Shown here piece after piece: positions 40,073 through 58,032 of a stretch of 64,000 nucleotides of DNA. The stretch is from Vulcanimicrobiota bacterium (lineage in GTDB: Bacteria > Vulcanimicrobiota > Xenobia > Xenobiales > JADMJV01): contig JBFWNU010000001.1 in the NCBI GenBank assembly GCA_050250895.1, positions 3,283,557 to 3,347,556 on the forward strand. The letters are read 5' to 3'. Numbering within the stretch: the first letter of the stretch is position 1; every line of letters starts with the position of its first letter. Under the pieces are notes generated by a model that was given only the letters and a program-made list of their open reading frames with translations, did not search any database and was not told where the DNA came from. The position numbers were made by a program, and so were the translations under genes.

Positions 40073-40117
40073 CGTTCCTGGCGGAGGAGCCCGCTGGCAA
40101 GGCGGGAAGGATGGCCT

Positions 40118-40765
40118 ATGAGCCAGGATTTGACTATCTACACCCTGGATTGGGTGCCCGAAGGGCCGCGCGGGTTTGTGCGCGACCTGCGTCTACGCTG
40201 GGCCGCCGAGGAGGCGGGTCTGGCCTACCAGGTCGGCACCGTGGCCTTCGAGGACCGCCTGACCAATCATCTCGAAAGCCAGCCGTTCGGACAGGTGCCC
40301 TTCCTGGTCGATGGTGATCTCAAGCTCTTTGAAAGCGGAGCCTGCCTGCTTCATCTGGCCCGCAAGAGCGAGATTCTCATTCCACGAGATGCAGCCGGCG
40401 AGGCAACCACCGTCCAATGGGTGATCGCCGCGCTCAATTCCATCGAGATGGTGTCGGTGCCGTGGTGGTTCTTGAGGTTCTCCGGCCGAGAAGAGAACGA
40501 ACTGACTGACTGGCTGGGAATGCGATTGGCCCAGCTCGAGGCGGTGCTGAGCGAACGGGAATGGCTGGTGGCTGACCGCTTTACCGTGGCGGATCTGTTG
40601 ATGGCCGACGTGCTGCGAGTTCCTGATGTGCGCGCTTACGGCGATCGTCCCGCCTCCGAGGCCTACGTCCAGCGACTCACCTCCCGGCCCGCCTTCCGCC
40701 AGGCCCACGCCGACCAGCTGGCCCATTTCGCCGCGGCGGACAAAGTGCGTTCCGGCGTGGCCTAG
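40118..40765 (+). CDS. Glutathione S-transferase family protein
   Basis: RDLRLRWA.EEAG..Y, QPFGQVP, LFESGA, FTVADLLM. Confidence 0.9.
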   Translation: MSQDLTIYTLDWVPEGPRGFVRDLRLRWAAEEAGLAYQVGTVAFEDRLTNHLESQPFGQVPFLVDGDLKLFESGACLLHLARKSEILIPRDAAGEATTVQWVIAALNSIEMVSVPWWFLRFSGREENELTDWLGMRLAQLEAVLSEREWLVADRFTVADLLMADVLRVPDVRAYGDRPASEAYVQRLTSRPAFRQAHADQLAHFAAADKVRSGVA

Positions 40766-40769
40766 CTCG

Positions 40770-40789
40770 GTACTTCCAGCTGGAAGTAC
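40770..40789. other. Perfect 20-bp palindrome directly before repeat array 1
   Basis: GTACTTCCAGCTGGAAGTAC. Confidence 0.9.
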
Positions 40790-40793
40790 TCGC

Positions 40794-41808
40794 TGGCCCC
40801 ACCCGGAGTGGGCGAAATCCCCCTGCCGGGGTGGGGCCAGCCCCCGGCCACCTGACCCGGCAATCGCCAGGGCGGGCCAACTTGGCCCCACCCGGAGTGG
40901 GCGAAATCCCCCTGCCGGAGTGGGGCCAGCCCCCGGCCACGGTGCCTGAGCCGGCAACCCCGGGCCATCCTGGCCCCACCCGGTGGGCGAAATCCCCCTG
41001 CCGGGGTGGGGCCAGCCCCCGGCCACGGTGCCTGAGCCGGCTACCCTGGCCAACTTGGCCCCACCCGGAGTGGGCGAAATCCCCCTGCCGGGGTGGGGCC
41101 AGCGCTCGGCCACCTGACCCGGGGCCTGGCTACCCTGGCCATCTTGGCCCCACCCGGAGTGGGCGAAATCCCCCTGCCGGGGTGGGGCCAGCGCCCGGCC
41201 ACGGTGCCTGACCCGGCTACCCGAGCCATCCTGGCCCCACCCGGAGAGGGCGAAATCCCCCTGCCGGGGTGGGGCCAGCGCTCGGCCACCTGACCCGGGG
41301 CCCGGCTACCCTGGCCAACTTGGCCCCACCCGGAGTGGGCGAAATCCCCCTGCCGGGGTGGGGCCAGCCCCCGGCCACGGTGCCTGACCCGGCTACCCGA
41401 GCCATCCTGGCCCCACCCGGAGAGGGCGAAATCCCCCTGCCGGGGTGGGGCCAGCGCTCGGCCACCTGACCCGGGGCCTGGCTACCCTGGCCATCTTGGC
41501 CCCACCCGGGGTGGGCGAAATCCCCTTGCCGGGGTGGGGCCAGCCCCCGGCCACAGTGCCTGAGCCGGCAACCCCGGGCCATCCTGGCCCCACCCGGAGT
41601 GGGCGAAATCCCCCTGCCGGGGTGGGGCCAGCCCCCGGCCACAGTGCCTGAGCCGGCAACCCCGGGCCATCCTGGCCCCACCCGGAGTGGGCGAAATCCC
41701 CCTGCCGGGGTGGGGCCAGCCCCCGGCCACAGTGCCTGAGCCGGCAACCCCGGGCCATCCTGGCCCCACCCGGAGTGGGCGAAATCCCCCTGCCGGGGTG
41801 GGGCCAGC
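40794..41808. repeat. Intergenic tandem array 1: 12 copies of a 48-bp hairpin core separated by 11 related 39-41-bp linkers (period 86-89 bp)
   Basis: Core TGGCCCCACCCGGAGTGGGCGAAATCCCCCTGCCGGGGTGGGGCCAGC; GAAAT at 40814, 40903, 40989, 41076, 41165, 41252, 41341, 41428, 41517, 41605, 41693, 41781. Confidence 0.92.
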
Positions 41809-41817
41809 GCCAGGCGA

Positions 41818-43107
41818 CTAGTGGCCGGGGGGTTTCATCGGGTCTGAGGGAGGCATCGGCCAGACCAGGTCGGGGCGCTCAAAGACGCCGCCAAAGAAGT
41901 CGAGAATGCCGGGCCAGCGGTCGTCGAAGTCGGCCCAGTTGTACTCGGTGACCCGGGGCGTCAGGGGGTTGTGGTCGCGGGCCGGCAGGTGCTTGGCAAA
42001 GCCGGCATAGCTCCAGCCCCAATCGGGCAGCGGCACGGCCACTCCCGGGGTGAGAGCGGCGAAGAGGGCGGCGCGGTCGACCTCGCCCGGCTTGACTTCG
42101 CCGGGAGTGAACGCGGCCTGGGCTATGTCGTGCTGCTCGCGATAGGCCATCAAGATGCCAGCCATCTCCACCAGGCGATTGCGCAGGCGCAGGTCGTCGA
42201 CCGAGCCGGCCTTTTGATAGAGCGCGTAGCCCACCACCAGAAAGTTGCGGTGATCCAGGCCGGTGAACTGGTCGAAGTGAGTGGGTAGGGGACCGTCGCC
42301 CTCGACCGCCGGCATGAGGCCGGCGTAGATGGTGCGGGCCTGGTCAGGCGAGGATGGAGTCGAGAGGCTGAAGCCGTCGAGCACGTCCTCGGCCGTCAGG
42401 CCGGGCCCGAAGCGACGGCGGAAGTGGCAGAAGTCCTGGGCGCTCACGCCCAGCTCTTCGAAGATCTTCCGATTGCCATCTTCGAGCGTATTGCGGGCGG
42501 TGCGGGCCACCGCCAGCAGACGCTCGGTGAAGTTGGCTCCGGGAGCCGTCTTGGTCAAAGCGAGCAAACGCTGGCTCGAGACGAAGATGGTGCGAGGATC
42601 GAGGGCTCCGTCGGTCAGGCCGAGCAGCAGCAGACCGCAGATGCGCTGGGTTTCGTCGACCACTCCGTTGAGTTCGGCTCCGCCGGCCAGCTCGGCCGCC
42701 TGGGCCCTCAGCCGCTCGTCGGGGTTGTCTGAGGCGGCCCAGCCCTCCAGCAGGCGTTCGGCCCGCCCGGCCATCACCATGCCCAGGCCCGCCTGGCGCG
42801 AGGCCCAGGGTCCAAAACCAAACCACGACGGGCTGGTGGTGATCTGGCTGGGATAACCCGGGTCATACTCGCTTTGCAACAGGTGGGAAAATTGCGAATA
42901 GCTGGCCGTGATCTGCTGGTTGAGCTCTTCATAGCGAAGGCCGCGGGCTAGAATGCCGCGCACGTCGGGAATCTCGGGCTGAGTGAAGACAGGGCGCGAG
43001 GGCAGGGGCTCAAGGCGAGGCGCGGGCTCGAACCGATCCAACGACAGGAGGACCTCTCGCGGACGCGAGAGAGTCACCGCTTTCGGAGTGGCAGCGCAGA
43101 TCTTCAC
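41818..43107 (-). CDS. Hypothetical protein with conserved-looking N..IT..Y, W..F..WASRQAG and GN..IF.E segments
   Basis: 429-aa ORF; motifs recall an uncharacterised (possibly DUF2515-like) family. Confidence 0.6.
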   Translation of the reverse strand: MKICAATPKAVTLSRPREVLLSLDRFEPAPRLEPLPSRPVFTQPEIPDVRGILARGLRYEELNQQITASYSQFSHLLQSEYDPGYPSQITTSPSWFGFGPWASRQAGLGMVMAGRAERLLEGWAASDNPDERLRAQAAELAGGAELNGVVDETQRICGLLLLGLTDGALDPRTIFVSSQRLLALTKTAPGANFTERLLAVARTARNTLEDGNRKIFEELGVSAQDFCHFRRRFGPGLTAEDVLDGFSLSTPSSPDQARTIYAGLMPAVEGDGPLPTHFDQFTGLDHRNFLVVGYALYQKAGSVDDLRLRNRLVEMAGILMAYREQHDIAQAAFTPGEVKPGEVDRAALFAALTPGVAVPLPDWGWSYAGFAKHLPARDHNPLTPRVTEYNWADFDDRWPGILDFFGGVFERPDLVWPMPPSDPMKPPGH

Positions 43108-43193
43108 GTCTTTTTCTAACCCTCCAGGCCGAGCCTGAGGTTAACAGCCTGTAAATTCAGAAGTCTTTCATTCCTCTTTTCTACACTCACCGT

Positions 43194-45626
43194 ATGCAGA
43201 TCGGTTTCGTTCGCCATGTCCATCCGCCCGTCACCCGCCGGGCCGGCTCGGCCGCGCCCTCGCCAGCCGACCAGCCGAGCGCCACCGACGCGGTGGAGTT
43301 GAGCGGCGGCACCAGCCGGGTCTTGTTTAGCGAGGCAGCGCGCCTGAATCTTTTGCCTAGCTCGGCGGCCGTTCCAGGGCCCCTGGGTGCGGTGCTCAGC
43401 CAGGCTGCCCAGGATGACCTGAAGGCTCTCTTTGGCCAGTTCGAGGCGGCCGGCCTCGAATTCCATAAGTGTGTCACTCCCCGCCACTATCGCACCTTCC
43501 AAGACAAGCACGCCCTCTCCCCTGATGAACTGACCGAGCGCGTGCTCTCTTCGGCTGCCGGCACCCAGGATCAGGGGCGTTTTGGCTATCTCGTCGTCCA
43601 CGGTCCGGGAATGGAGGCCGCTCGCGTCGACGATCTGGCCGACCTGCAAAGCCTGCAAGCTTTCGTGCTTGACAAAGACACCTCACAGCTGGCTCAGCCC
43701 CGTCTGGCCGACCAGTTGCTCAAGCTCGAAGAGCGTGGTTTTCAGCCTTTGCTGACCGAGCGCGAGGTCGACGAGTCGGGCTCGGTGACGGGCGGAGCCT
43801 ATCGTGCCGCCGTGTCCATCCGCAAAGTCGGGGCCTACGGCGCCTATCGCGCTTTGACCGGGGCGGGCGAGGAGAACTTGCTCTGGACCCGCAAAGGGCA
43901 GTCCGACGCCCACCGCCTGCAGACAGCGGCTGATGTGGGCCCCTTAGCCTATTTTGAACTCGATCAACCGGGCTGGGAGCCTGACGAGCTGGCCACCTCG
44001 ATCAAAGGGCTGGCCGACCAGGGCTACTCCTTCACCAACGGCAACGATCAGGTCGATCCGCTGGCCGCTCACAACCGCTACAGCTCCTGGAGCAGCACCG
44101 AGCTAGCGGTGGGTGTGCTGGGCAATGGGGGCAGGCGCTCGACCAGGGAACAGGTGCTCAACCCCGAATTGCTCGACCCGGCGGTGCTGGCTCTGGGCGA
44201 GTTCTTCAACGAGAAGATTCGCGGCCAGGGCAGCCCCCAGGAAGAAGAATTGACCGTCCGCATCCTGGCCTTCGAGCCTCCCGGCGGAACCCTGACCGAA
44301 CGTCATCAGGCCCTGATGGACTTGCGCCAGCTCGAAGCCGACCACGAGCCGCAGCTCGAATCGATCCAGAAGCTGGGCCGAGCCGGCTGGAACATCCGCG
44401 AGCTGCTCAAGCTGCGCAACCCCGACGAGCCTCTCTCGGAACTCGTCGACGCTTATCGCCAGGTGCGGGCCGACCTGCCTCACGGCGTGGCCGTCAAGGC
44501 TCTGGCTTTCTTTCGCCAGGACCTGCCCGGGCGCAGCGTCGACGCCGAGGACTACGCCACCCAGCGCAGCGAGTTGACCGAGCTAGCCCGCGGCACCACC
44601 AGCTTCGAGCAGATTCCGCTGGCTCACGAACTGATTCGTCCCGATCTGATGCCCGAGAGCTTCGCTGAGCGGGTTGATGTCTTTCATACCATGGTGGAGG
44701 CCTATCGCGAGCTTCCCATGGAAGAGGTGGGCACCTTCGATCGGCGCCAGCCCGAGCAAGAAGCCGTCGACGACTATCGCTTTCTGCTGGCCGGTCGCCG
44801 CCCGGGTCAGGGGCTGGCCGAGGCCAGCAACGGTTTGGTCCAGACACACCAGCAACTGGCTGCACGCATAGGCTTTAAAGGCAGCCGCGAGGTCTTTGGG
44901 CGCTTTCAGAAACTGGGTCTCGATTCGCTCGCGGGTTATCTGGCCGGCATCGGCCAGGTGCTCGACCAGCTCGAGCAAGCCCGCGGGGCCGACAAGCCCG
45001 GTAAAGAGTTGACTCAGGATTACAACACGGTCCTGCGCCATCGCCAGGTGGGTCAGGACCTCGACCAGGCGGGCTCGGCCCTGGCCCGGCTCCACCGCGA
45101 GGTGGGCTCACGAGTCGGCTGGGAGCAGAGCCGCGTTGGCTACGGCCAGTTACAGAGCCGCTTCGAGCGGGGCCAGTTCGGCGGGGCGAGCTTCGAGCAG
45201 GCGGTCGAGCAGTACGTGGGCGAGCAGAAGAACGTGCTCGACCGACTCGATGGCGCCTATGACGGCAAAAATCCCGAGCTGGCCGAGGATTATCAGGCCA
45301 TGCTCACCGAGCGACCGGCTGGCCATTCGGCCGAAGAGGGAGCCGAATTGTTAGGCGCCCTGGCGCTGGCGCTGCGAGGCAAGGCCAGGCCCGAAGAGTC
45401 GCGCAAGCTCTACATCCGGATGGTGCAGGAGCATCAGAAGGGCGTCTTTGGCGAACGCTCGCCCCGCCAGGTCGTGAGCGATTTCTTGCAGGCCATGACC
45501 CTGACCGACGACCGGGCCAAGGCCTATACCGTGGCCCGTTTCGGCTCGCCCGCCGGCCAGGACATCTCCTTTGACGACGACCAGGTCATCATCGGCGATT
45601 TCCATCTGCCCATCGAATCCCTCTAG
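43194..45626 (+). CDS. Large helical hypothetical protein with internal repeats and C-terminal DDD.V.IGD motif
   Basis: 810-aa ORF; repeated DY..(V/L)L..R..G....E/Q segments; N-terminal DAVELS. Confidence 0.7.
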   Translation: MQIGFVRHVHPPVTRRAGSAAPSPADQPSATDAVELSGGTSRVLFSEAARLNLLPSSAAVPGPLGAVLSQAAQDDLKALFGQFEAAGLEFHKCVTPRHYRTFQDKHALSPDELTERVLSSAAGTQDQGRFGYLVVHGPGMEAARVDDLADLQSLQAFVLDKDTSQLAQPRLADQLLKLEERGFQPLLTEREVDESGSVTGGAYRAAVSIRKVGAYGAYRALTGAGEENLLWTRKGQSDAHRLQTAADVGPLAYFELDQPGWEPDELATSIKGLADQGYSFTNGNDQVDPLAAHNRYSSWSSTELAVGVLGNGGRRSTREQVLNPELLDPAVLALGEFFNEKIRGQGSPQEEELTVRILAFEPPGGTLTERHQALMDLRQLEADHEPQLESIQKLGRAGWNIRELLKLRNPDEPLSELVDAYRQVRADLPHGVAVKALAFFRQDLPGRSVDAEDYATQRSELTELARGTTSFEQIPLAHELIRPDLMPESFAERVDVFHTMVEAYRELPMEEVGTFDRRQPEQEAVDDYRFLLAGRRPGQGLAEASNGLVQTHQQLAARIGFKGSREVFGRFQKLGLDSLAGYLAGIGQVLDQLEQARGADKPGKELTQDYNTVLRHRQVGQDLDQAGSALARLHREVGSRVGWEQSRVGYGQLQSRFERGQFGGASFEQAVEQYVGEQKNVLDRLDGAYDGKNPELAEDYQAMLTERPAGHSAEEGAELLGALALALRGKARPEESRKLYIRMVQEHQKGVFGERSPRQVVSDFLQAMTLTDDRAKAYTVARFGSPAGQDISFDDDQVIIGDFHLPIESL

Positions 45627-47217
45627 ACCTGACTGGCTGTTGCTCGAACGGCAGCTCCATCCACTCTTTCCAGGGCGGGACCGGGTCGTCCATCGGCCGG
45701 TCGAATTCATAGTAGGAGTACACGGCGCCCTCGCTCCAGTAGAGGCGGCCTTGATACGGAACAATGACGACCAGCCGCAAAGGACGTCCCGAACCGGCAT
45801 AGCGCTGGGTGCCGGTGGAGAGCTCGCTGGCAATGGGGGTCAGCACCCCCGCTGGCTGGGGCGGGTGAGCGATGTTGGTGCGGTTGAGCGAGAGTGCCTT
45901 GAGCTCTTCGCCGTAGTTGGCCAGAAATTCTAGTTGTTGGTGCGAGAATGGCTGGTCCTCGAGTTCTACCCAGGCCATCTCGGCGAGCTGGCCACACAAG
46001 CTTTCCAGTCGCAGGAAGTCAGCCTCGGTCGGCACCGACTCTCCCCGGCCAAAGAACTGCTCGAACTGTCGATACGACATCGACTCGACATCGAGGCTGC
46101 TGCCCTGGTTGGATCTCGCCCGGTAGGCACGCTTGAGTTCGCGCTTTTGACGGACCTGCAACTCGGCCATGGTCTCGAAGACTCCGGCCGCGACCAGGGC
46201 TTGGCGCGTGCGTTTGGTGAGCATCTGCATGCGCTGGAAGAACTCGGGGGCCGGCTCCACATATCCGCTAAAGCGATTCTCTTTGAGAGTGCCCCCCATG
46301 TAATAGGAATTATCTTTGGTGGCGCGGTCCAGGGTGTGCTCGAGTTCGGCCCAGCCTCCCAGCTGGGTGTTCAGGGTCTTGCGCTGCCAAACGCTGCTAT
46401 CCATGAAGCTGGGATATCCGGGGCCGTGGTGAGACAGCGAGGCCAGGGCCAGGATGGTGTCCTGATAGATCGAATCGTGGGCCTGCAAAGAGTCGCGCAA
46501 GACGCTTTGCCGGTCGGGGTCGAGGTCGAGGCTCGGGTGACCCAGCAAAAAGGCGATGTCGTTGCCCTCGGGGATGTCGTTGCAGTTCGAGAAGACGGCC
46601 TGAAAGGCCAGGTTCTTCAGAGTGAGCCCCTGCGGCATGATGCGCATCCCCTCCACCGGCACCCCCCGGTCGACCACCCGCGGCGCGACCACCGGGGGAC
46701 GGCCAGCGAGAAAGCTCTCTGGGCCCGGGTCGTCGGCTGAACCGGCCAGCTCGAGGTCCAGGCGCCTGATTCGCTCATACAGCTGCCAGTCTGGACTAGC
46801 CCGAAGTTTGTTGCTCAAAGCCACGCATCTGGCCAGCTGCTCATCACTTTCAAAGGGCAGAGGCTCGCCCAGGTCGGGCAGACCGAGTTCGTTTTTCAGG
46901 CGCTCCTCCAGGGGATCGCGCACCTTCCCATGGAATTCGACCAGAGTGTCGTTGAGCAACGACTGATAGGCATGGAAGAGGCTGTCGCTGGTGATGAAGG
47001 GAGCCGGGTTCAGCAAGTATGCTTCATAGAAGTCCAGGTGCTCGCCGGGCCCGAGCCAGCAGGCATTCTCCGCCAACTCGGCCCGCGCTTCCAGTGGTTG
47101 CAGCCCTTCAACCTCGGTCAGAGGGGGGCTCAGTTGATAGGGCGTTAGCTTCGCCAGGCGCGGTTCGGCTTGGCATCCGAGCATCAGCAGAGCGAGTAGG
47201 AGCGCATGTCGTCGCAT
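45589..47217 (-). CDS. DUF3160-family lipoprotein
   Basis: LMLGC lipobox; FITSDSLFHAY, KTLNTQLGGWAELEH, GYVEPAPEFF, GAVYSYYEF. Confidence 0.78.
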   Translation of the reverse strand: MRRHALLLALLMLGCQAEPRLAKLTPYQLSPPLTEVEGLQPLEARAELAENACWLGPGEHLDFYEAYLLNPAPFITSDSLFHAYQSLLNDTLVEFHGKVRDPLEERLKNELGLPDLGEPLPFESDEQLARCVALSNKLRASPDWQLYERIRRLDLELAGSADDPGPESFLAGRPPVVAPRVVDRGVPVEGMRIMPQGLTLKNLAFQAVFSNCNDIPEGNDIAFLLGHPSLDLDPDRQSVLRDSLQAHDSIYQDTILALASLSHHGPGYPSFMDSSVWQRKTLNTQLGGWAELEHTLDRATKDNSYYMGGTLKENRFSGYVEPAPEFFQRMQMLTKRTRQALVAAGVFETMAELQVRQKRELKRAYRARSNQGSSLDVESMSYRQFEQFFGRGESVPTEADFLRLESLCGQLAEMAWVELEDQPFSHQQLEFLANYGEELKALSLNRTNIAHPPQPAGVLTPIASELSTGTQRYAGSGRPLRLVVIVPYQGRLYWSEGAVYSYYEFDRPMDDPVPPWKEWMELPFEQQPVRSRGIRWADGNRR

Positions 47218-47291
47218 ATCGACCAGACGATCAGCGGGCTTAGAAAGTTCGATGTTCGGAAGAGCGGTATTTTCTGCTAGTATAGGAGCGC

Positions 47292-49668: not shown

Positions 49669-49717
49669 ACTAGCCTCCTTCACGTCCCGAGGCTAACTCG
49701 ACCCACTCAAACCCGAC

Positions 49718-51556
49718 TCAAAAATCGGTCAGCTCGAAGTAGAGTCGAGCGAGTTCGGAAGGGGGCGGCAGATCGAGTTCGGCTTTGAAGGCCCGCACGC
49801 AGGCGTGGTAGGTTCGCACCGCCTCGGCCCGGAGTTCGAGGGCGACGTAGCATTCCATCAGGCCCTGATAGGCCGCTTCGCAGCAGTTGTCTTGGAGTAA
49901 TACTCGTTCCCACCACTCCACCGCCTGGGTCAGCTTGCCGCGCTGGCGGAAATACGCGGCCAACAGATTGCGGCACTCGGTCAGCTGATCGGCCAGACGT
50001 AGACGCAGTTCGCCACCCCACTCCTCGAAGGCGCCGGCCAGGAAGTCGCCGCGGGCCAGTCGCTCGGCTTGCTGTAACTGGGCCAGAGCCTCTTCCCAGC
50101 GGTGTTCGCGCGCGGCCTCGCGTCCTCGTTGGTAAGCTTTCTCGAACTGGTCGACATCGACCCAAAGGTGGGCCAGGCGATAGCCTTCAGGTCCCCGTTC
50201 TAGCGCGTCCCGCCCTTCTTCTCCAAGGGCCTTGCGGATCTGGGACACGCTGTTCTGTAGCGAATGGCGGGCTCGGGGGCCTCCGCGAGGCCAAAACTGC
50301 TCCATCAAGACCTCTTCGTGGATCATCTGACCGAGGTGGGCGGCCAGATAGGCCAGCAGCTTGCGATCCTTGCGACTGGGAAAGGCGTCTTCGGGCAAGA
50401 CCTGGCCGTCCCGGGTGACTTCGAAGCCACCAAAGAGGAAGATCTTCAGGCGTTCCTGGGGGGGCGGCTGCTCTAGCCGGGAAAGCCCCGCTTCGTCCTC
50501 CCAGAGGGTGAAGAGCTCGCGAGCCCGGACCAGGTCGACCTGCTGGCCAAGACGGGCCAGTTGCACCAGGCTCTCGGCCTCGACCAGGTCGAGACGGTGG
50601 GTCCGGGAATACTCCAACAGCTGTCGAGCTCGCCCAGCCGCCCGTTCGGGCTGGCCCGCGCTTTGCCAGAGGCGAACCTGAGCCTGATGGATGCGGGCCA
50701 CCTGCTCGAACTGTCCATCCGCCAGCTGAGTGGCTCGCTGGTACAATTCGTCTGCCTCGACCCAGCGGCCCAGTTCGCGGTGCTTGTCGGCCAGGCGAAC
50801 CAGGTTCTCGAAGCTGGTGGTGTCCTCGAGGGCCAGCTCGACCTGGTCGGGTATTTCTTCGAGCATCTCGGCCAGTTCGGGGTCGGCGCTCTGAGGATCG
50901 GCGGCGGCCATCACCAATCGGGCCTCGAGCAGCGCGGGCGAGCCGGTCTGGAAGGCGGCCACCACGGTGGCCAGACGCTGCAGACCGGGCCAGCTGGCCA
51001 GAGCCCGAGGCTCGAGGTCGTGTAGCAGCGCGGCCAGATAGACCAGCCGGCTGCGCTGGGGGGAAAAGCCAAGCCGGCCCGCCAGCCCGGCCGCGCGCGC
51101 GGCCAGCGGGCCGTGGTCGTGTTTTTGCAGGTGGTCCAGCAGGCGAAAGAGCTGGTCGGTCGAGCCTGGTTGGGGCCGGATGGCGCGCCGGCGATAGTCC
51201 TCGAGCACCCGTTTGAGACTGGCTAAAAAGACGTGGCCGTCAAAAGGCTTAAGCAGATAGTCGTCGACTTTGAGCTTGAGAGCAGTGATGGGGGTGTCGG
51301 GACTGGCGTAACCGGTAATCACGATGGCGCGGGCCTCGGGCAGATGGCGCCGGATCTCGGAGAGAGCATCCAGACCATTCATCCCGGGCATACGAATGTC
51401 ACACACTACCAGGTCGAAGCTCCGCTGGCGAGCCAGCTCGATGGCTTCGGGTCCGCTGGCGGCGCCGGCCACCTGGTAGCCGGCCTCTTCGGCGGCCATC
51501 TCCAGGCTTTCGCGCATCAGCTCGTCGTCGTCGACGATCAGGACTCGGGCCGACAC
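49718..51556 (-). CDS. Response regulator: REC + degenerate HD-like region + TPR + SARP-type DNA-binding/BTAD domain
   Basis: VDDD, CDIRMPGM.G, KPF; LAALLHDL; LFGGFEV, LLAYL, VDVDQF, CEAAYQGLM..Y. Confidence 0.85.
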   Translation of the reverse strand: MSARVLIVDDDELMRESLEMAAEEAGYQVAGAASGPEAIELARQRSFDLVVCDIRMPGMNGLDALSEIRRHLPEARAIVITGYASPDTPITALKLKVDDYLLKPFDGHVFLASLKRVLEDYRRRAIRPQPGSTDQLFRLLDHLQKHDHGPLAARAAGLAGRLGFSPQRSRLVYLAALLHDLEPRALASWPGLQRLATVVAAFQTGSPALLEARLVMAAADPQSADPELAEMLEEIPDQVELALEDTTSFENLVRLADKHRELGRWVEADELYQRATQLADGQFEQVARIHQAQVRLWQSAGQPERAAGRARQLLEYSRTHRLDLVEAESLVQLARLGQQVDLVRARELFTLWEDEAGLSRLEQPPPQERLKIFLFGGFEVTRDGQVLPEDAFPSRKDRKLLAYLAAHLGQMIHEEVLMEQFWPRGGPRARHSLQNSVSQIRKALGEEGRDALERGPEGYRLAHLWVDVDQFEKAYQRGREAAREHRWEEALAQLQQAERLARGDFLAGAFEEWGGELRLRLADQLTECRNLLAAYFRQRGKLTQAVEWWERVLLQDNCCEAAYQGLMECYVALELRAEAVRTYHACVRAFKAELDLPPPSELARLYFELTDF

Positions 51557-52800
51557 GCGCCCTCCAGGGGCAGTTGCAAAGTGAAGGTCGCGCCCTGACC
51601 GGGCTGCGAGTCGACCGTCAAGCTGCCCCCGTGGTCCTTGACGATTTGGTATGAAACGGCCAGCCCCAGACCGACCCCCTGGCCCACCGGCTTGGTGGTG
51701 AAAAAGGGTTCAAAGACGCGCCTCATCACCTCTTGCGGCATGCCGACTCCGGTGTCGCTCAGGCGCACGCGAGCCCGCCCATCCTCGACTCCGCAGGTGA
51801 CTTCGAGGCGACGCGGTGCGGTTTGGTTGAGTGCATCGCGGGCGTTGAGGACCAGGTTGAGAAAGACCTGGGCCAGTTGGGCTTCTTCGCCTTCCACCTC
51901 GACCGGCTCGAGTTGACAATCGACTTCGATCTCGAGCTTCTCGAGGCCGTGGCGCAGCAACTCGATGGTTTCTTCCAGGGTCTGATCCAGGCGAAACCGG
52001 CGCCGCTCGGCGCGCGCGGGATGAGCAAACCGCAGCAACCGGTCGATGGTGTCCCGGCAGCGTCCCACCGCTCGGGTCATCAGTTCGGTGCGCCGCTGTA
52101 AACCCGCCTCTTCGAGCTTGGGAGCCAGAGCCGTCAGGTTGAGGGCCAGCACTCCCAGCGGGTTGTTGATCTCGTGGGCCAGGCCGGCCGCCAACTGGCC
52201 CACGGCGGCCAACTTCGAGGCTTCAAAAAGCTGGGATTGGGTCTGGGCCAGCTCGGCTCTTGCTTGCTCGAGACTGGACTGATGCACTCGCTGCAGCTCG
52301 GCATAGAGAAAGGCGTTCTCGAGCGCCCGAGCGGCCTGATTGGCCACCGCTTCCAGCAGCTCGAGATGGCTCGGCTTGAAGACCCCGCTGCGAATCCGAT
52401 GATCGGCATAGACGACCCCTCGCACCTCGCCACCCCACCGCAGCGGGACGCACATGATGGAGTGGATACTCATCAGCGTGATGCTTCCGTAGTGGTGGAA
52501 ATCGGCGTCTTTAGAGGCGTCGTCACTCAATAGCGCGACCCCCTCGCGGGCCACCCTCTCGATGACGCTCCGGCTATAGTTGTAGGCCTGCTCGCTGGCC
52601 TCGGCATCGAGGGCCCGGCCGGCCACCAGGCGCCACCCCTCGCCCTCGCGCATGACTACGAAGCAACGCTCGGCTTCGAAGGCCTCGACCACTTGCTCGA
52701 TGAGGTTGTCGAGCACTTCGTCCAATTCTAGCGAAGAGCTGAGGATGGTGTTGACCCTCAACAAGAGGGCCAACTGGTCGCGCTCGAGGTGGGTCTCCAT
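51538..52800 (-). CDS. GAF-domain sensor histidine kinase
   Basis: GAF (SIMCVPL, GVVYAD); H-box AHEINNPL; N, G1, F (FEPFFTTK), G2 boxes. Confidence 0.92.
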   Translation of the reverse strand: METHLERDQLALLLRVNTILSSSLELDEVLDNLIEQVVEAFEAERCFVVMREGEGWRLVAGRALDAEASEQAYNYSRSVIERVAREGVALLSDDASKDADFHHYGSITLMSIHSIMCVPLRWGGEVRGVVYADHRIRSGVFKPSHLELLEAVANQAARALENAFLYAELQRVHQSSLEQARAELAQTQSQLFEASKLAAVGQLAAGLAHEINNPLGVLALNLTALAPKLEEAGLQRRTELMTRAVGRCRDTIDRLLRFAHPARAERRRFRLDQTLEETIELLRHGLEKLEIEVDCQLEPVEVEGEEAQLAQVFLNLVLNARDALNQTAPRRLEVTCGVEDGRARVRLSDTGVGMPQEVMRRVFEPFFTTKPVGQGVGLGLAVSYQIVKDHGGSLTVDSQPGQGATFTLQLPLEGACRPES

Positions 52801-52859
52801 GGCCGATTGGGTTCGCAGAGAACTAGGGCTGCCCCTCCGCCGGGCCGAACAGGGGCGCC

Positions 52860-54896
52860 ATGGAGTTCGACAACCTCCAGCAGTTTCTCGAGAGCATGTC
52901 TGCCCCGGCCGAGTCGAGCGGAGAGTTCACCCTGTCCCTCGACGAAGCCGAGCGCAAACTGGACCAGTTTCAGCTGCTCGAGCCGGGTCTGTATCCGGTT
53001 TTTCTGGTGGCCTCGGCAGTGGCCGGCGGGGCCAGCTATTTTCGCGTTGCTTACGACGACGAACAGGTTAGCTTCTCCTACAATTCCCAGCCCTATCCTC
53101 GTTCCGAACTCGAGAACCTGCGGGCCTACCGTTTTCGCAACCGGGGCGATCGCGCTTTGCGTCATCTGGCCGTGGCCCTGCTGGCAGCCGATCGAGTGTG
53201 CGAGACGGTCCAGCTGCGTACGGCTGGCGCCGTGCTAGATCTCCACGAGGATAAGGTGACCATCGTGCCGGCTTCAGACGCGCGCGAGAACCAGGTGGTG
53301 GTGACGCGTCCGCGCGGCTTTCTGTCGTCCTTCCTGCGCCGTCCCCCCGACCTGTCCGAGACGCTCACGCTCTGTCGCCATGCACCGCTAAGTCTGCAGT
53401 TCTCCGACGAAAAAAGAGTCAGCCGCTACTTTCACCATCACGACGCCCTGGTCCACCGCCAGTTTCTGTTAGCGGGCGAAATTCCCCCGACCTTCGTGCG
53501 TGGCCAGGTGCAAAAGGTGGAATCCCCCGGCCAATACTGTGGCGCGCTGGCCATCGTCACCCGTGAGGGCGGCTATCTGACTCTGGTGGTCGACGGACTC
53601 TCGCACCGGCTCGACGTGGACGAACCCTACCTCGGTGGGATCTTTTGGAACAACCACCTCAAGCTCGACCTCTCGTGTACGGGTTTGGTGCAAGACGAGA
53701 CGCTGGCCGAGATGCTGAGCCAGGTCTGGTCCCACCTTCCGGCCATGCTTCTCGAGCGCATACGGGCCGAGGGGGCTCTTGATTCTGACGAGCGGGACCT
53801 GCTCGAGCAACTGGTGCCCCAGGCGATCCGCCACTATGAGGCTTCAGACCCGGAGGCCGCCGACTATCTGCGAGGTTGGATGAGCACCGCTCAGTCAGCC
53901 GACATCCACCTTGGCCAGGCCGAACTCATGGCCGAACTGCGCCGGCTGGGGCCCGAGGACTCTTCGGCCCGCACGGTGGCTTTGCGGGCGCGGCTGCTCG
54001 AGGAGTTGACCCTGGCCTTTCGCAAGGCCAGCTGGTCGGGCGATCGGCAGGCCTTCGAAGAGAACCTCGCCTGGTTACGAGAGTTCCACGTGCCAACCCA
54101 TCCCACCCTCGAGGCTCTGGCTGAGGTGGTAGCGGCTCGCTCGGGAGATTTGCCCACCTTTAGCCCGGTAGACTCTGATTCTTTCGTGCGCAAAGTGGTC
54201 TGCCTGCGCTATCTTGGTGCCTACGACGAGGCGACGCGCCTGTGTGAGGAGGGGGCCGAGCGGTTTTCTTATCGCCAGGATTTTTTCGCCTGGCAGGTCG
54301 AGTTGCTGCTCTTGAGCGAGCCCAACCGTGCCCTGGCTGTAGCCCAGCGGGCCGCTCAGGCTTTCCAGGGACGGCCCCGGGGGCACTACGACCTGCAGGA
54401 GCGCCAGACTCATTTTCACGACCTGATAGCCGATTGTCACGATCTGCTCGGCGAGCCCAAAGCGGCGCTGGCAGCCCGACTCAAAGCCCTGGAGGAAACT
54501 ACTCCGGATTCTTATCTGGCCTACTTTCGGTTGCGTTACCTCACCACCGCCTATCGCGGCCACATGGCGTGGTTGGAGTGGGTGCGACGCGAGGTCGAGA
54601 CGCGCCGCCTAAGCTGGAGGGCCCGCCAGGGCAGAGACGCTTCGGCCGCCGCTCGCGACCAGGTGCGCCAGAAGCTCTTCCGCAGGCTCATCGCGAAGCA
54701 ACTGGCGGGCCTCGAGTCGACCTTGCTCGAGGTGGCCAAAGGCTACGTCTTCGACCGTGAGGTGGCGGACTATCTGTTGGGCCGCCTCAACCACCTGTTC
54801 CGCCAACGCGGCCAGTCGCTCGAGGGCGAACGCTTGTTAGCCCAGGTGCGCCTCAACTACCACATCGAGACCTTGACCAATTCTTTTCTGTACTAG
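52860..54896 (+). CDS. Hypothetical protein with a degenerate HATPase-like N-terminus and TPR-like C-terminus
   Basis: SSGEFTLS...A..KL..FQL start; L.LD.S...LVQDE segment; helical repeats. Confidence 0.6.
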   Translation: MEFDNLQQFLESMSAPAESSGEFTLSLDEAERKLDQFQLLEPGLYPVFLVASAVAGGASYFRVAYDDEQVSFSYNSQPYPRSELENLRAYRFRNRGDRALRHLAVALLAADRVCETVQLRTAGAVLDLHEDKVTIVPASDARENQVVVTRPRGFLSSFLRRPPDLSETLTLCRHAPLSLQFSDEKRVSRYFHHHDALVHRQFLLAGEIPPTFVRGQVQKVESPGQYCGALAIVTREGGYLTLVVDGLSHRLDVDEPYLGGIFWNNHLKLDLSCTGLVQDETLAEMLSQVWSHLPAMLLERIRAEGALDSDERDLLEQLVPQAIRHYEASDPEAADYLRGWMSTAQSADIHLGQAELMAELRRLGPEDSSARTVALRARLLEELTLAFRKASWSGDRQAFEENLAWLREFHVPTHPTLEALAEVVAARSGDLPTFSPVDSDSFVRKVVCLRYLGAYDEATRLCEEGAERFSYRQDFFAWQVELLLLSEPNRALAVAQRAAQAFQGRPRGHYDLQERQTHFHDLIADCHDLLGEPKAALAARLKALEETTPDSYLAYFRLRYLTTAYRGHMAWLEWVRREVETRRLSWRARQGRDASAAARDQVRQKLFRRLIAKQLAGLESTLLEVAKGYVFDREVADYLLGRLNHLFRQRGQSLEGERLLAQVRLNYHIETLTNSFLY

Positions 54897-55149
54897 CCAG
54901 GGCCGTCGCGGCTCGTGTAGAGAGGGTAGTCTCGGCTGGCACCCGCCCAGAAGTGGTGGCTGCCTTGACAACAGAGGGTGTAGGCTGCCCGAAGCGAGCT
55001 CGATAGATCTCGAGCATGAGAGCCAGGCCCTTGAACTGACCGCGACAGGTGATCAGCTGCCCATCGGCCCCGAGCCGCCAGCTGGCCAGGCCGTTGAAGG
55101 CGATGGCGAGGATCAGGCTCAGGGCCAGGGCGGCATAATTGCGGGACAC
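54853..55149 (-). CDS. Short pilin/GspG-like ORF, possibly a truncated remnant
   Basis: TM helix then CRGQFKGLALMLEIY, similar to CRSNLKNLLTALEMY in the 16848 gene. Confidence 0.4.
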   Translation of the reverse strand: MSRNYAALALSLILAIAFNGLASWRLGADGQLITCRGQFKGLALMLEIYRARFGQPTPSVVKAATTSGRVPAETTLSTRAATALASTEKNWSRSRCGS

Positions 55150-55180
55150 ATCGGCTTTACGCCGACGGCCCCAGGTCGGT

Positions 55181-55990
55181 TCACTGCAACTGGTCGGCGT
55201 GGTGGCGAGCGGCCTCGGCCGGATCGACCGTCTGGCCTTGCATGAACGGGCAGGCGGCCGCGCCTTTCTTGGCTTCTTGAGTGGACAGGGCGGCGGTCAC
55301 ACCAGGGTCCTGGTCAGACGCTCCATCAGCGAAGAACTCGGCCATGGCCGAGCCCGCCTGGTAGAATCCGAGGCTGCCGGGACGGGCGGTCCACTCTTCC
55401 GGGAAACGGTTCTCCTTGAAGAGCCGCACGAAGTCCTTGTTCATGATGAAGCGGTTGCCTTCGGCGTCGGTGCGGCCGAAGACTTCGACCACCAGCGAGA
55501 ACTCAGCTCCGCCGAAGATCTCCCCGCGTTGGCCAGGCTCTTCTTCGAGCAGGGCCTCTTGATAGCGGCGCAGGTCTTTGAGAGTCAGGCGCTCGCCGTC
55601 TGAGCTGAAGGTCAGCGCTTTGTCGAGGCGTTCCTGGCTGAAGCCGTTGCGCAGGATCTGCGAGTCGGCGTTATGGTCAAGGTTGCTGCCTTTGAGGGCG
55701 CGCAGGTTGAAACTATCCGAGGTCAGGGCGTCCCAAACGCCGTCGGCCGAGGTGCGGTTGGCGCCGAGCACGGCCACCTTGCGGAGCATATATTTGGCTC
55801 CGATGTCATCTTTGAGAAAGTCGTTGAGGCCGGTGCAATTGCCGTATTGGTCCACCTGGAGGCGGCCCTCACGCACTCCGGTCTTGAGGACAGGACAGGG
55901 AATCTCTTCGATGTCGAAAGGCTTGTCGTCGGCTTGTTGGGGGGCTTTGTGCCCATAGGGGCATACGCTGGCGTGCTGGTGAATCTGCAT
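55181..55990 (-). CDS. Heme-thiolate peroxidase (chloroperoxidase/UPO)-like or caleosin-like protein
   Basis: PCPVLKT (PCP at 55892-55900), LDHNADS, AEF.L...FG, LFKENRFPEEW. Confidence 0.55.
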   Translation of the reverse strand: MQIHQHASVCPYGHKAPQQADDKPFDIEEIPCPVLKTGVREGRLQVDQYGNCTGLNDFLKDDIGAKYMLRKVAVLGANRTSADGVWDALTSDSFNLRALKGSNLDHNADSQILRNGFSQERLDKALTFSSDGERLTLKDLRRYQEALLEEEPGQRGEIFGGAEFSLVVEVFGRTDAEGNRFIMNKDFVRLFKENRFPEEWTARPGSLGFYQAGSAMAEFFADGASDQDPGVTAALSTQEAKKGAAACPFMQGQTVDPAEAARHHADQLQ

Positions 55991-56064
55991 AGAGCCAGGT
56001 TATTGCCCGGCGCTTAAACTATGCCTAAACATCGGCCCGCGCGCCCGTAGCGACGGGAAGTTTA

Positions 56065-56436
56065 TCAGGAATTCACATCGACGAGCCGGTCGGCCAGGTC
56101 TTCGCGACCGAAAGGGCGGATAGGAGTAGTATCCCGCAGCCATTCGAGGTCGAACTCGAGCCCCTCGATCGGCCCGGGGCACCCCAGATAGAGGGGACCG
56201 GCTACGGTGTCGATGCGCAGCAGATAGCAGTGGAACGAGTGCTCTTCCCACTCCCACCGTCGCTCGACCAGGGGAGGACCCTCGAGGCTGGCTACCGTGT
56301 AGAGTCCGGCTCGATAGCCGGCGGCTCGCAAGGGCGCCTCGAGTTCGGCCGACTCGAGCTTGCCCCGAGGCATGGGTTTCCAGCCCAGTTCCTCGACCAG
56401 ACGGAGGACTTCGTCACGGGTTGGTTCGAGTGCCAT
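56065..56436 (-). CDS. Hypothetical protein
   Basis: 123-aa ORF in the coding-biased frame. Confidence 0.5.
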   Translation of the reverse strand: MALEPTRDEVLRLVEELGWKPMPRGKLESAELEAPLRAAGYRAGLYTVASLEGPPLVERRWEWEEHSFHCYLLRIDTVAGPLYLGCPGPIEGLEFDLEWLRDTTPIRPFGREDLADRLVDVNS

Positions 56437-56501
56437 CCCGTAAGATTCCGCACGCGGGTCGGTAGGTCATCCCTCCCCTTCGGTTTGGGTCGTGCGGCCC
56501 C

Positions 56502-57704
56502 TTAGGGTGTCCTCGTGTGCCGGCGCTGCACGGCCGAATCCCGGGCGGCCTTCCACTCGGGCCGATTTGCAAAATCTTTATCATGCTCAGTGGCGTGGCA
56601 ACCCGGACACAACAGCTCTAAGTCGTCCAGTCGATGTTGTCTGGTTTCGGACCAGGCTCGAACGTGGTGGACCACCAGGTTGCCGCCTGGGCACGAGCAT
56701 CGCTCGCAACGGCCGAAAGCGCGGGCGTAAACCGCTCGCACCAACCCCACCGGAAGCCCCGGCCTGCCCTTTGTCCGGCTCGGCAGTAGCGACAACTGCT
56801 CGGGCTGGCCAGGTTCAGCTGGGGGTTTAGCCGGGCACCTTCCAGCTGGAAGTTGGGTTCGAGCCACCACGATTCCGGTTTGCTTCATCGCCTCGTCAAC
56901 GGCCTCGGGCTCGGCCTGCAAGAGTCCGCGGTCGGTGTCATAAAAGCCCTCACCCGTCTCACCGTTCACGTGCACGATGACCTGATGGCGCACTTTGCTG
57001 CGGTTGTCGGCCGAGGTGAGAAACTTCTTGCTCATTTCGGTCACCGCCGTCTCTTTGCTGACGCGTTTGCCCTGGCGGGCCTCGACCATTCTTTTCGCCT
57101 GCTCAAAGGTGGCATACTGCTCGGGGGTCAGCAGCAGAATGACCTGTCTCAATTTTGGCGCCGCCGGAACGGGGATCGGCTCTGGCTTGCGAACTGCTTC
57201 TGTGGGTTGCTCGGCGAAAGTCAGTTTGGGTTGCCTTTGGCGAGCTTCCAGCGAGGCTTTCATTGCCTGGCCACGCTTGTGCTGCGTGGGGGTAAGAGCC
57301 ACGGCGCGCTCGACTACCTGAGCTTTGTTCTTGAGGGCAAACTCGAGCATTTCGACCTCGTTCTCAGGGGTAGTGATTCGCTTGAGAGCGCGGGCTTTGC
57401 TCCAGCAGAGCTTTCCCTCGCGAAAGGCCTCTGAGATCAGTGGCAGTTGCTCGAAGACCCTCGCTAAACTGAGTAGTTCACCGGCCTTTTGAGGATGCAG
57501 GTTGAGGTGGGTTACAGCGTAGCCTACCGTACTCCCGCTACCCAGGTGGCGATAGAGTCCGCTGCGTTCGGTGGCCAAAAGGTGGGCGGCCAACTTCCAT
57601 TCGCAGTCGAAGGAGCACTTGCTGGCCTGGCAGTTGCTCTGATGGAGCTCCTGGTGAGACAGTTGTTGCAGGGCCTGGGAGAGTCCCGATAAAGTTGAAG
57701 ACAT
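56502..57704 (-). CDS. HNH endonuclease with a DUF222/13E12-like N-terminal region
   Basis: LARVFEQLPLISEAFREGKLCWSKARAL; C-terminal RCERC..VHHV..W......DLELLCPGCH..EH; GGAGGT RBS before ATG 57704. Confidence 0.85.
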   Translation of the reverse strand: MSSTLSGLSQALQQLSHQELHQSNCQASKCSFDCEWKLAAHLLATERSGLYRHLGSGSTVGYAVTHLNLHPQKAGELLSLARVFEQLPLISEAFREGKLCWSKARALKRITTPENEVEMLEFALKNKAQVVERAVALTPTQHKRGQAMKASLEARQRQPKLTFAEQPTEAVRKPEPIPVPAAPKLRQVILLLTPEQYATFEQAKRMVEARQGKRVSKETAVTEMSKKFLTSADNRSKVRHQVIVHVNGETGEGFYDTDRGLLQAEPEAVDEAMKQTGIVVARTQLPAGRCPAKPPAEPGQPEQLSLLPSRTKGRPGLPVGLVRAVYARAFGRCERCSCPGGNLVVHHVRAWSETRQHRLDDLELLCPGCHATEHDKDFANRPEWKAARDSAVQRRHTRTP

Positions 57705-58032
57705 AGCCGACCTCCGAGTAGAAGAAGAATCAAGGAATAGCCCTATTTTACTCCAGGACAACCGGCGGATCAATGCCGTATAATGGCTTGGTTACGGGGT
57801 TTGGACGCTCCTTCGCAGGCGGCCGCAAGAAGGGGTTTCGAGGAGAAAATGATTCAGCGAACCATGTTCGGCGCGGGAGTGGCTGAGAGCGCTCATGAGA
57901 ACGTGGTCCGCCATGTTTCGGGGCGGAGCAACTTTAGGGCGATGTCTCATTTTGCGATTGTTAGAATGTCACAACATTTTGCCTCCGGCTGGCTTCCAGC
58001 TGGAAGTCCGTCCGAGGGCTGGGTGGATCCGG

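Follow-up and report, generated by a model that had tools for sequence, protein, structure and literature searches.

The 64-kb stretch of DNA analyzed here (C1:3283557-3347556, in the following referred to as the window) belongs to the genome of a Vulcanimicrobiota bacterium (here named G000), a 9.50-Mb assembly of 17 contigs with 63% GC and a completeness of 99.6%. One of its genes encodes a predicted HNH nuclease of 400 amino acids, and a 14-bp palindrome, CTTCCAGCTGGAAG, occurs upstream of this gene, inside its coding sequence, and close to two tandem repeat arrays. In this study, we examined the palindrome, the nuclease gene, and the arrays in the window, in the whole genome, and in related and distant genomes. 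The features of the locus are as follows, with the strand given where one applies.

40770..40789: solo site 1, GTACTTCCAGCTGGAAGTAC, a palindrome that is perfect over 20 bp and has the 14-mer as its core at 40773-40786
40793..41823: array 1, 11.7 copies of an 88-bp unit according to Tandem Repeats Finder (TRF), each unit with a long GC-rich inverted repeat (GGCCCCACCCGG...CCGGGGTGGGGCC)
56502..57704, minus strand: nuclease gene, 400 amino acids, with a predicted ParB/Noc-like domain and an HNH domain
56839..56852: internal site 2, inside the coding sequence of the HNH gene, where it codes for residues 285-289, LPAGR (L285-R289), of linker 2
57745..57773, minus strand: promoter-like site TTGATC-17-TAAAAT upstream of the nuclease gene, within the most conserved noncoding part of the element
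57955..57982: conserved leader motif, in gene orientation AAATGTTGTGAnnnnCTAACAnT, the start of the homology between gene copies
57993..58006: upstream site 3, which marks the outer edge of the conserved element and precedes the nuclease ATG by 289 bp
58022..58967: array 2, with TRF rows from 58022/58036, units of 112 to 140 bp, and ~7.5 copies
58971..58980: TTCCGCGGAA, a short palindrome related to the motif in degenerate form, at the distal end of array 2

The original prediction for this stretch held that three exact copies of the 14-mer are unlikely to occur by chance, and this was confirmed. The copies at 40773-40786, 56839-56852, and 57993-58006 compare with 0.03 expected, and none of 100 shuffles of the window gave three copies. 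No additional matches with up to one mismatch were found in the window beyond these three sites. When any 4-nucleotide center was allowed (CTTCC-N4-GGAAG, in the following the relaxed motif), seven sites were obtained versus 0.11 expected, four of them within array 2. The copy at 40773-40786 is indeed embedded in a perfect 20-bp palindrome at 40770-40789, as had been proposed; a GST-like gene (40118-40765) has its stop codon 4 bp before GTACTTCCAGCTGGAAGTAC, and array 1 follows 3 to 4 bp after this palindrome. The internal site is located 46 codons ahead of the HNH domain, and 16 to 30 bp separate the upstream site from the start of array 2.

Analysis of the genome using tblastn revealed 18 close paralogs of the nuclease gene (subfamily A), which share 62 to 84% amino acid identity, have no internal stops, and are intact or nearly intact. 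Four copies at ~44% identity form subfamily B, and ~20 more distant copies fall into groups C, D, and E. In a search that included relatives, subfamily A was seen in G000 alone. The proposed link between the palindrome and the HNH gene proved to be real and specific: the exact palindrome is found within 520 bp upstream of 16 of the 18 subfamily A genes, with a center variant in the remaining two, and at ~+858 of the coding sequence in 14 of the 18, the other four being off by one or two bases (13 exact internal sites among the 17 full-length paralogs). Pairwise identity of the internal 14-mer in these 17 paralogs is 0.96, versus 0.53 and 0.61 in the adjoining 12 nucleotides, and its surroundings vary among the paralogs in both length and sequence. 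In four paralogs, the flanks of the internal site contain a duplication of ~30 bp with a degenerate second copy of the palindrome. The codons of the site, CTT CCA GCT GGA AG, are A/T-ending in a genome with 63% GC.

Alignment of the 17 full-length copies together with their flanks showed that homology begins at the upstream palindrome and stops at the stop codon. Inside the upstream palindrome, at a distance of 8 to 28 bp, lies a conserved motif, AAATGTTGTGA...TAACATT, and column identity is 0.79 to 0.87 over positions -87 to -1. The leader at 57955-57982 also harbors a conserved dyad, AAATGTT-N10-AACATTT, and in Palauibacter, a motif containing AACATTT likewise lies in the interval from the upstream palindrome to the gene (L059-type loci, ~150 bp upstream). 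The dyad may be a second protein-binding or promoter element. Two other candidates for the leader were rejected. For a structured RNA in the 200 nucleotides between the promoter and the upstream palindrome, RNAalifold gave a consensus of only -0.58 kcal/mol with seven pairs on one strand, and no Rfam matches at E values of up to 0.1 were found in 40000-60000. For a divergent promoter toward array 2 (AGGACA-18-TATAAT), the TATAAT element is not kept in the other 16 paralogs. A separate observation concerns a 5'-truncated paralog at C2:768523-769320 that matches residues 111-396; an exact palindrome stands where its homology begins, with a palindrome-bearing array upstream, which is consistent with a rearrangement at the palindrome.

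The original prediction had named mapping of the palindrome throughout the genome as a check. This mapping revealed that the exact 14-mer is present 122 times, distributed over 42 loci separated by 3 kb or more, compared with ~0.04 expected from base composition, and that its placement is nonrandom. CTTCCAGCTGGAAG ranks first among 799 distinct perfect 14-bp palindromes (1,354 occurrences); the sequences at ranks 2 and 3, CTTCCGCGCGGAAG (47 copies) and CTTCCACGTGGAAG (21 copies), have the same CTTCC arms, and the palindrome at rank 4 reaches 11 copies. The relaxed motif occurs at 413 sites in 124 loci, while the median for all 5+4+5 inverted repeats is 6. These sites are mostly extragenic, and 324 of the 413 have unique contexts over ±12 nucleotides. 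Their complementarity stops after one flanking A/T pair and does not extend beyond 5 to 6 bp. Outside the nuclease genes, 4 of 108 exact sites lie in coding-like frames, versus 466 of 600 random positions, and 71 of the 122 exact copies fall in TRF-detected tandem arrays or inside gene copies. In 40 relatives, one of them of the same genus, the 14-mer is present in zero or one copy each. A larger mobile unit with extended conserved flanks around the 14-mer was not found, the commonest 7-nucleotide flank being present at nine loci. Comparison with empty sites was not informative for the relatives G001, G002, and G004, which match only in pieces of 59 to 680 bp with 66 to 79% identity, so that synteny was unusable.

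Furthermore, we analyzed the tandem arrays of the genome and found 217 with a period of at least 30 (140.7 kb; TRF score of at least 200), which group into 80 sequence clusters. The relaxed motif is present in 39 of them, in its exact form in 13. Motif-bearing arrays lie within 1 kb of a subfamily A or B gene in 11 of 39 cases versus 2 of 178 for motif-free arrays (odds ratio of 35, P = 1e-7), a comparison that controls internally for extragenic location. Extending the distance to 1.5 kb gives 12 motif arrays at eight genes, representing nine unrelated unit clusters, and 9 of the 12 are upstream. At least two sites are found within 2.5 kb upstream in 10 of the 18 subfamily A genes. The units of these arrays start with the palindrome and otherwise differ between arrays. 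Of the proposal that arrays are amplified beside the palindrome, the clustering of motif arrays near the genes stands, whereas 178 of the 217 arrays are motif-free.

The dispersed family to which array 2 belongs comprises 24 arrays, and the motif is present in 13 of them. The palindromes of array 2 are loop variants, CTTCCGTGCGGAAG at 58094, 58221, and 58345 and CTTCCGTGTGGAAG at 58859. The statement that the units of this array carry a variant palindrome therefore holds for about 4 of the ~7.5 units, the others being degenerate, and TTCCGCGGAA was found at its end (58971-58980) as had been described. Array 1 is one of a dispersed family of 13 arrays, and the units next to the HNH paralog at C11:75141 contain a related module joined to CTTCCACGTGGAAG. 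The two arrays had been described as otherwise unrelated; no relation exists between the two, but both are members of dispersed unit families in which CTTCC-type palindromes occur elsewhere in the genome. An enrichment of the palindrome at the edges of motif-free arrays was considered and rejected, as 8 of 178 such arrays compare with 1.55 expected at uniform density and with ~7 expected if sites are confined to the ~22% of the DNA that is noncoding-like. CRISPR-type arrays were also dismissed, since whole units of 88 to 140 bp repeat at 84 to 94% identity with no unique spacers.

Two side observations were made on the arrays of this genome. G000 includes a dispersed family of 50 arrays and several hairpin-rich unit families devoid of the CTTCC motif (e.g., C1:2797511-2798241, C4:74815-76371, and C1:2264407-2264831). 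No enzyme was linked to these arrays, only four of which lie within 2.5 kb of a distant HNH paralog. In addition, a 10-N assembly gap (C1:3912990-3913000) is located inside a palindrome-punctuated array upstream of the paralog at C1:3912123, so that the assembly does not give the full length of every array. A search for public sequencing runs covering 55000-60000 yielded none.

The original prediction had also named covariation between the palindrome and the HNH homologs as a check, and the other subfamilies as well as the DUF222-HNH genes of other phyla were found to carry palindromes of their own at similar positions. In subfamily B, CTTCC-G[CG][CG]C-GGAAG is present upstream and at the 3' end of the gene. 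Subfamilies C and D have GACACACGTGTGTC and the 18-bp TCGTCCCCCGGGGGACGA, respectively, both in the stretch ahead of the HNH domain, and subfamily E has TGACCCGCGCGGGTCA upstream and 5 bp past the stop codon. At C5:339600-344200 of G000, three subfamily E genes stand in tandem at a spacing of 1,799 bp with the 16-bp TGACCCGCGCGGGTCA between the copies, i.e., as an array of whole genes punctuated by the palindrome. A homolog in the relative G011 is accompanied by GTCCCCCGGGGGAC upstream, within the gene, and 17 bp past its stop codon.

For more distant genes, 52 loci were obtained from a scan of species-representative genomes, and palindromes of at least 14 bp around the gene were listed for 49 of them. 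Lone palindromes of at least 12 bp in the linkers of relatives were set aside, since they occur about once per 1 to 3 kb; only the recurrence of the same palindrome of at least 14 bp was counted. Such a palindrome is present at least twice in or beside the gene at 24 of the 49 distant loci and represents six types: GTTCCCGCGGGAAC and GTTTCCGCGGAAAC in Palauibacter and other Gemmatimonadota, TTTCCCGCGGGAAA and TTCTCCGCGGAGAA in Actinomycetes, and GTACCCACGTGGGTAC and CCCCCACGTGGGGG in Myxococcota. Ten of these proteins were scanned. Six are bona fide DUF222 proteins (E values of 2.5e-6 to 6e-26) with an HNH match, that of L054 being just under the cutoff, while two have a subthreshold HNH match alone and two have no match.

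The layout in Gemmatimonadota comprises a palindrome upstream, 49 codons ahead of the HNH domain (46 here), and ~20 bp past the stop codon; downstream sites at +17 to +20 past the stop recur in several lineages. The internal site codes for VPAGT in Gemmatimonadota and for LPAGS/R here. The palindrome calls for a first codon with TT at its end and for GGA as the glycine codon, both of which are A/T-ending choices in GC-rich genomes and indicate that the constraint acts on the DNA. In five Gemmatimonadota genomes of 3.4 to 4.1 Mb, GTTCCCGCGGGAAC occurs in 51, 76, 33, 55, and 69 copies, with controls at 0; the same genomes have 4, 9, 1, 2, and 5 DUF222 matches, respectively. In one complete Gemmatimonadota chromosome, 20 regions with 27 sites were inspected, and the 23 sites outside the two DUF222 loci have unrelated flanks. 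As an additional observation, the ACGTTCCCGCGGGAACGT-type palindromes of these genomes (G041-G045, reached via L059, L061, L078, L085, and L076; 33 to 76 per genome) are mostly solo sites of 16 to 18 bp with unrelated flanks (L143-L162). In Granulosicoccus, Actinomycetes, and Myxococcota, the palindromes remain with the genes (0 to 11 copies per genome).

One candidate for a second covarying palindrome, TCCCCCGGGGGA, was rejected: it is enriched in G000 (13 copies), G009 (16 copies), and G011 (7 copies), but no HNH-family match lies near its sites in the regions of G009 and G011 examined, and the evidence retained is limited to the three-copy locus L029. In G009 (L110-L121), TCCCCCGGGGGA often takes the form of ATTTCCCCCGGGGGAAAT-like sites that resemble the Noc-binding consensus, and the 12 regions inspected there (15 sites) contain no HNH-family gene nearby.

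We next turned to the protein. According to Pfam, its HNH domain spans residues 333-376 (PF01844, 35.4 bits versus a cutoff of 21.4), and the zinc and catalytic residues C333, C336, H346, H347, C366, C369, H370, and H374 are invariant in 23 homologs. The alignment of these 23 sequences shows three conserved blocks (1-145, 183-283, and 314-390) plus two variable linkers. Taken together with the model described below, the order is a predicted ParB/Noc-like helical DNA-binding domain (residues 14-142), linker 1 (158-186), a middle domain (~190-275), linker 2 (276-313), and the HNH domain. With DUF222 (PF02720), the window copy scores 16.4 bits (E value of 0.006, profile positions 45-136 of 306), whereas nine paralogs score 24.1 to 26.3 bits over profile positions 3-136 of 306 only and are described as passing the cutoff of 24.4. 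The window copy, which the original prediction discussed together with DUF222-HNH genes, falls under this cutoff. Precomputed Pfam annotations place PF02720 on three paralogs of G000 (P0007, P0008, and P0012) and also on P0023 and P0026, and the order of a DUF222 region followed by a C-terminal HNH domain is the same as in the bona fide members L059, L061, L066, L071, L054, and L077. The protein probably belongs, as a divergent member, to the DUF222-HNH ("13E12") family. An RNA-guided nuclease of the IscB type was rejected as an identity, since NF040563 gave 26.6 bits versus a cutoff of 175 on the HNH part only, there is no Rfam match in 40000-60000, and the leader has no conserved structure.

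In the AlphaFold model (pLDDT of 71.5), the N-terminal domain is confident, the HNH domain fair, and the middle domain moderate, while residues 158-186 and 276-313 are disordered; the internal palindrome encodes residues of the disordered linker (pLDDT of 26 to 34). Residues 14-142 of the model align with the DNA-binding domains of Spo0J, Noc, and ParB (VIA-align Z scores of 10 to 11.2, root mean square deviations of 2.1 to 2.7 Å over 98 to 115 residues), with all top 11 rows belonging to this family. For the same part, Foldseek gave probabilities of 0.99 to 1.0 but E values of 0.17 to 0.2. These matches are suggestive of a ParB/Noc-like fold at the N terminus. The HNH part matches the HNH protein of phage GVE2, Cap5, and McrA with Z scores of ~8. 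Besides HNH, no Pfam family was matched at E values of up to 0.001, i.e., no ParB N-terminal CTPase (ParB/Srx CTP-binding) domain was detected; at E values of up to 10, only DUF222, DUF7850, and Succ_CoA_lig are added, and the structural match spans only the DNA-binding part of the ParB chains. The parS site (TGTTTCAC-GTGAAACA) and the Noc-binding site NBS (TATTTCCC-GGGAAATA) are each bound by two ParB or Noc domains with 2-fold symmetry, as described in the portion of PMC7383237 consulted. The palindromes found here have TTCC(C)/GGAA half-sites in common with parS and NBS. As single-stranded DNA, the bare 14-mer folds poorly (-2.6 to -2.9 kcal/mol, z score of -0.2), and the best fold of site 3 omits the palindrome; the 20-mer at site 1 reaches -7.2 kcal/mol (z score of -3.9). 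The weak fold favors a duplex site read by a dimer over the hairpin of the original prediction.

The data show that palindrome and gene are physically linked, that the palindrome is conserved at the nucleotide level and specific to its lineage, that it covaries across subfamilies and phyla and is spread through extragenic DNA, and that a ParB/Noc-like fold is predicted for the protein. Since the palindrome is linked to the gene, conserved within a disordered linker, lineage specific, and covarying, since the predicted ParB/Noc-like fold is matched by NBS-like half-sites, and since no Y1 transposase was found, the product of the HNH gene most likely has CTTCCAGCTGGAAG as its cognate double-stranded DNA site. 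Each gene keeps this site in cis, ~300 bp upstream at the outer edge of the element and within its own coding sequence at linker 2. A dimer would occupy the two half-sites, CTTCC and GGAAG, and the HNH domain, tightly controlled, would nick or cut bound sites or the DNA near them. If these breaks were repaired out of register, from a neighboring or distant copy of the palindrome, the segment between two sites could be duplicated, giving rise to arrays with one palindrome per unit, preferentially by the gene, where the protein is made. In the same way, the element may be copied or deleted, with solo sites remaining as footprints or targets. We regard this explanation as a whole, i.e., a cognate site, HNH action at this site, and arrays built by repair, as probable on balance.

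Several findings weigh against this explanation or narrow it. More than 100 sites are intact in the genome, so the enzyme cannot simply cut every one of them. Since 178 of the 217 arrays are devoid of the motif, array formation in this genome does not need the palindrome, and 28 of the 39 motif-bearing arrays are not near a subfamily A or B gene. Array 1 has no internal CTTCC palindrome, and the tie between the palindrome and this array, part of the original prediction, is not significant and within expectation given the extragenic bias of the sites. Palindromes as both ends of the element fail for subfamily A, in which 14 of 17 copies have none at the 3' boundary. The placement of the second site differs by lineage (ahead of the HNH domain, after it, or at the 3' end), and many of the distant loci are kin: 16 of the 24 share the first type, leaving ~10 independent lineages in all. 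No HNH-family match was found near TCCCCCGGGGGA in 16 regions examined (15 of 16 sites in G009 and 4 sites in G011). Finally, helical models can reach Z scores of ~13 to 14 by chance, according to the caution of the tool on structural matches.

The main rival is pure autoregulation, in which the palindrome would be an operator that silences a toxic nuclease, both from upstream and as an intragenic roadblock, while arrays and dispersed copies would stem from general recombination and serve as decoys or be neutral. This covers the gene-linked sites: they are located upstream of the promoter-like element and within the gene, and most lineages examined confine the palindrome to the gene loci with 0 to 11 copies per genome. 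The 178 arrays devoid of the motif also fit. An operator alone does not cover dispersal or the excess of arrays, however. It fails to account for a site of 14 to 18 bp at 124 loci with 324 of 413 different contexts over ±12 nucleotides, for the 33 to 76 solo sites with unrelated flanks in Gemmatimonadota, and for the excess of motif arrays by the genes in nine unrelated unit families, and the catalytic and zinc residues of the nuclease are invariant. We judge it unlikely.

A second alternative is that the palindromes are independent REP-like repeats (REP, repetitive extragenic palindromic) which owe their spread to another host or mobile function, with the HNH element inserting beside them and having captured its linker copy by chance. 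The variable spacer of 8 to 28 bp between the upstream palindrome and the first conserved base would agree with such insertions, as would the mainly extragenic location of the sites (4 of 108 versus 466 of 600 random positions in coding-like frames), and insertion of ISPpu9 into REP sequences is reported in the portion of PMC8450116 consulted. Chance capture does not, however, explain why 17 paralogs retain the internal copy with 0.96 identity as its flanks drift, or why each subfamily and phylum has a palindrome of its own. Moreover, no Y1/RAYT transposase was found in the genome, and the protein of the element would still have to recognize the palindrome. This alternative appears improbable.

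Less probable again is a signal at the RNA level, in which hairpins would act as terminators downstream of genes (site 1 behind the GST gene, and the Gemmatimonadota sites ~20 nucleotides past the stop) and, within the linker, as an attenuator limiting translation of the nuclease domain. Site 1, 4 bp past a stop codon and stable as a 20-mer (-7.2 kcal/mol, z score of -3.9), and the downstream sites at +17 to +20 in several lineages would suit terminators. The 14-mer alone is a poor hairpin (z score of -0.2) that the best fold of site 3 skips, a T-run is lacking, Rfam gave no match, the leader shows no conserved structure, and the gene-linked sites are perfect through their centers (AGCT, ACGT, CCGG, and GCGC), which a hairpin loop does not need; such a signal also offers no route of dispersal. 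Passive hitchhiking, by which the 14-mer would be common only through a multicopy gene and tandem units amplified for unrelated reasons, is scarcely credible: although 71 of 122 copies do lie in TRF arrays or gene copies, the 14-mer is the sole sequence common to many unrelated unit families and the gene, its conservation is far above that of its flanks, 324 of 413 sites have unique contexts over ±12 nucleotides, and the pattern recurs with other palindromes in other lineages.

Beyond this genome, the preferred explanation of a cognate site acted on by the HNH protein can be extended to a broader and more tentative reading. DUF222-HNH genes, possibly including the 13E12 repeats, might be an unrecognized class of selfish elements with a ParB-like reader, an HNH cutter, and a palindrome written in the element, in which breaks are repaired between copies with the palindrome as the sole homology. 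The gene would be copied into solo sites and deleted leaving footprints, and arrays would be ratcheted up with one palindrome per unit. This would make the class an HNH-based counterpart of REP/RAYT across several phyla, which we consider possible, though doubtful at present.

Two features apart from the palindrome were also observed. A single open frame of 4,019 amino acids on the minus strand at 26677-38736 of the window contains a 36-bp tandem repeat with 15 copies at 37504-38046; its product is probably a giant repetitive surface or secreted protein. Elsewhere in G000, C13:80777-94455 shows periods of 71 to 76 bp with a constant 36-nucleotide part (GCTTCAATAGGGCCAGCTCGTCATCGAGCTGGATGG) and variable remainders and looks like a large CRISPR array.

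Among known systems, REP, REPIN, and BIME sequences with their RAYT transposases share several traits with the system described here, i.e., a short palindrome that is overrepresented, extragenic, clustered, and lineage specific and that flanks the gene for its presumed enzyme. The RAYT gene is single-copy and flanked by REPs, which are stable stem-loops arranged in inverted doublets. Here, the enzyme has an HNH and a predicted ParB-like domain instead of an HUH/Y1 transposase, its gene is multicopy (18), and the motif is present within the coding sequence as well. Instead of inverted REP doublets (REPINs), units of 88 to 370 bp are repeated directly in tandem, and the 14-mer is a weak hairpin. 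A search of the 99.6% complete genome for Y1/RAYT transposases (PF01797) gave no matches at E values of up to 0.001, while a control search was positive in 6 of 14 known genomes.

ParB-parS and Noc-NBS are similar in the predicted fold of residues 14-142 and in perfect palindromes of 14 to 18 bp with TTCC(C)/GGAA-type half-sites scattered on the chromosome. In Bacillus subtilis, the first parS site lies inside spo0J, and sopC of the F plasmid consists of 43-bp tandem units, each with one SopB palindrome. The protein described here differs in its fused nuclease, in that a CTPase domain was not detected, in half-sites that are 2 to 4 central bp further apart, and in its multicopy gene. HNH homing endonucleases are likewise comparable as site-specific HNH nucleases (here predicted) with a selfish-looking multicopy gene. 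Homing enzymes sit in and disrupt their target, whereas more than 100 intact sites are present here in or beside the gene and elsewhere, with no intron, intein, or disrupted host gene.

Also comparable are the mycobacterial REP13E12 elements and other DUF222-HNH genes, which have the same domain order and are dispersed and multicopy with no known mechanism; the window protein differs in matching only the first ~136 of the 306 profile positions, below the cutoff. DUF222-HNH proteins are widespread, often multicopy, and mobile-looking, and we know of no established target or mechanism for them. As far as the consulted portions of two papers go, REP13E12, HNH endonuclease, and DUF222 are named as one category of repetitive elements (PMC10589994), and DUF222 is listed solely as an unknown domain fused to HNH (PMC3592412). 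A literature search, mainly of titles and abstracts and with most subscription journals outside its scope, found no published link of HNH/DUF222 proteins to dispersed palindromes and no such system. The DUF222-HNH proteins thereby gain a candidate lineage-specific DNA site together with a predicted ParB/Noc-like domain to read it, and the target of the nuclease becomes directly testable. The system also provides a candidate cause for hyperabundant short palindromes with unrelated flanks, and for dispersed tandem arrays whose units each contain one palindrome, in a genome in which a search for REP-associated transposases found none. Should the nuclease drive the repeats, it would represent a second, mechanistically different route to REP-like colonization of genomes.

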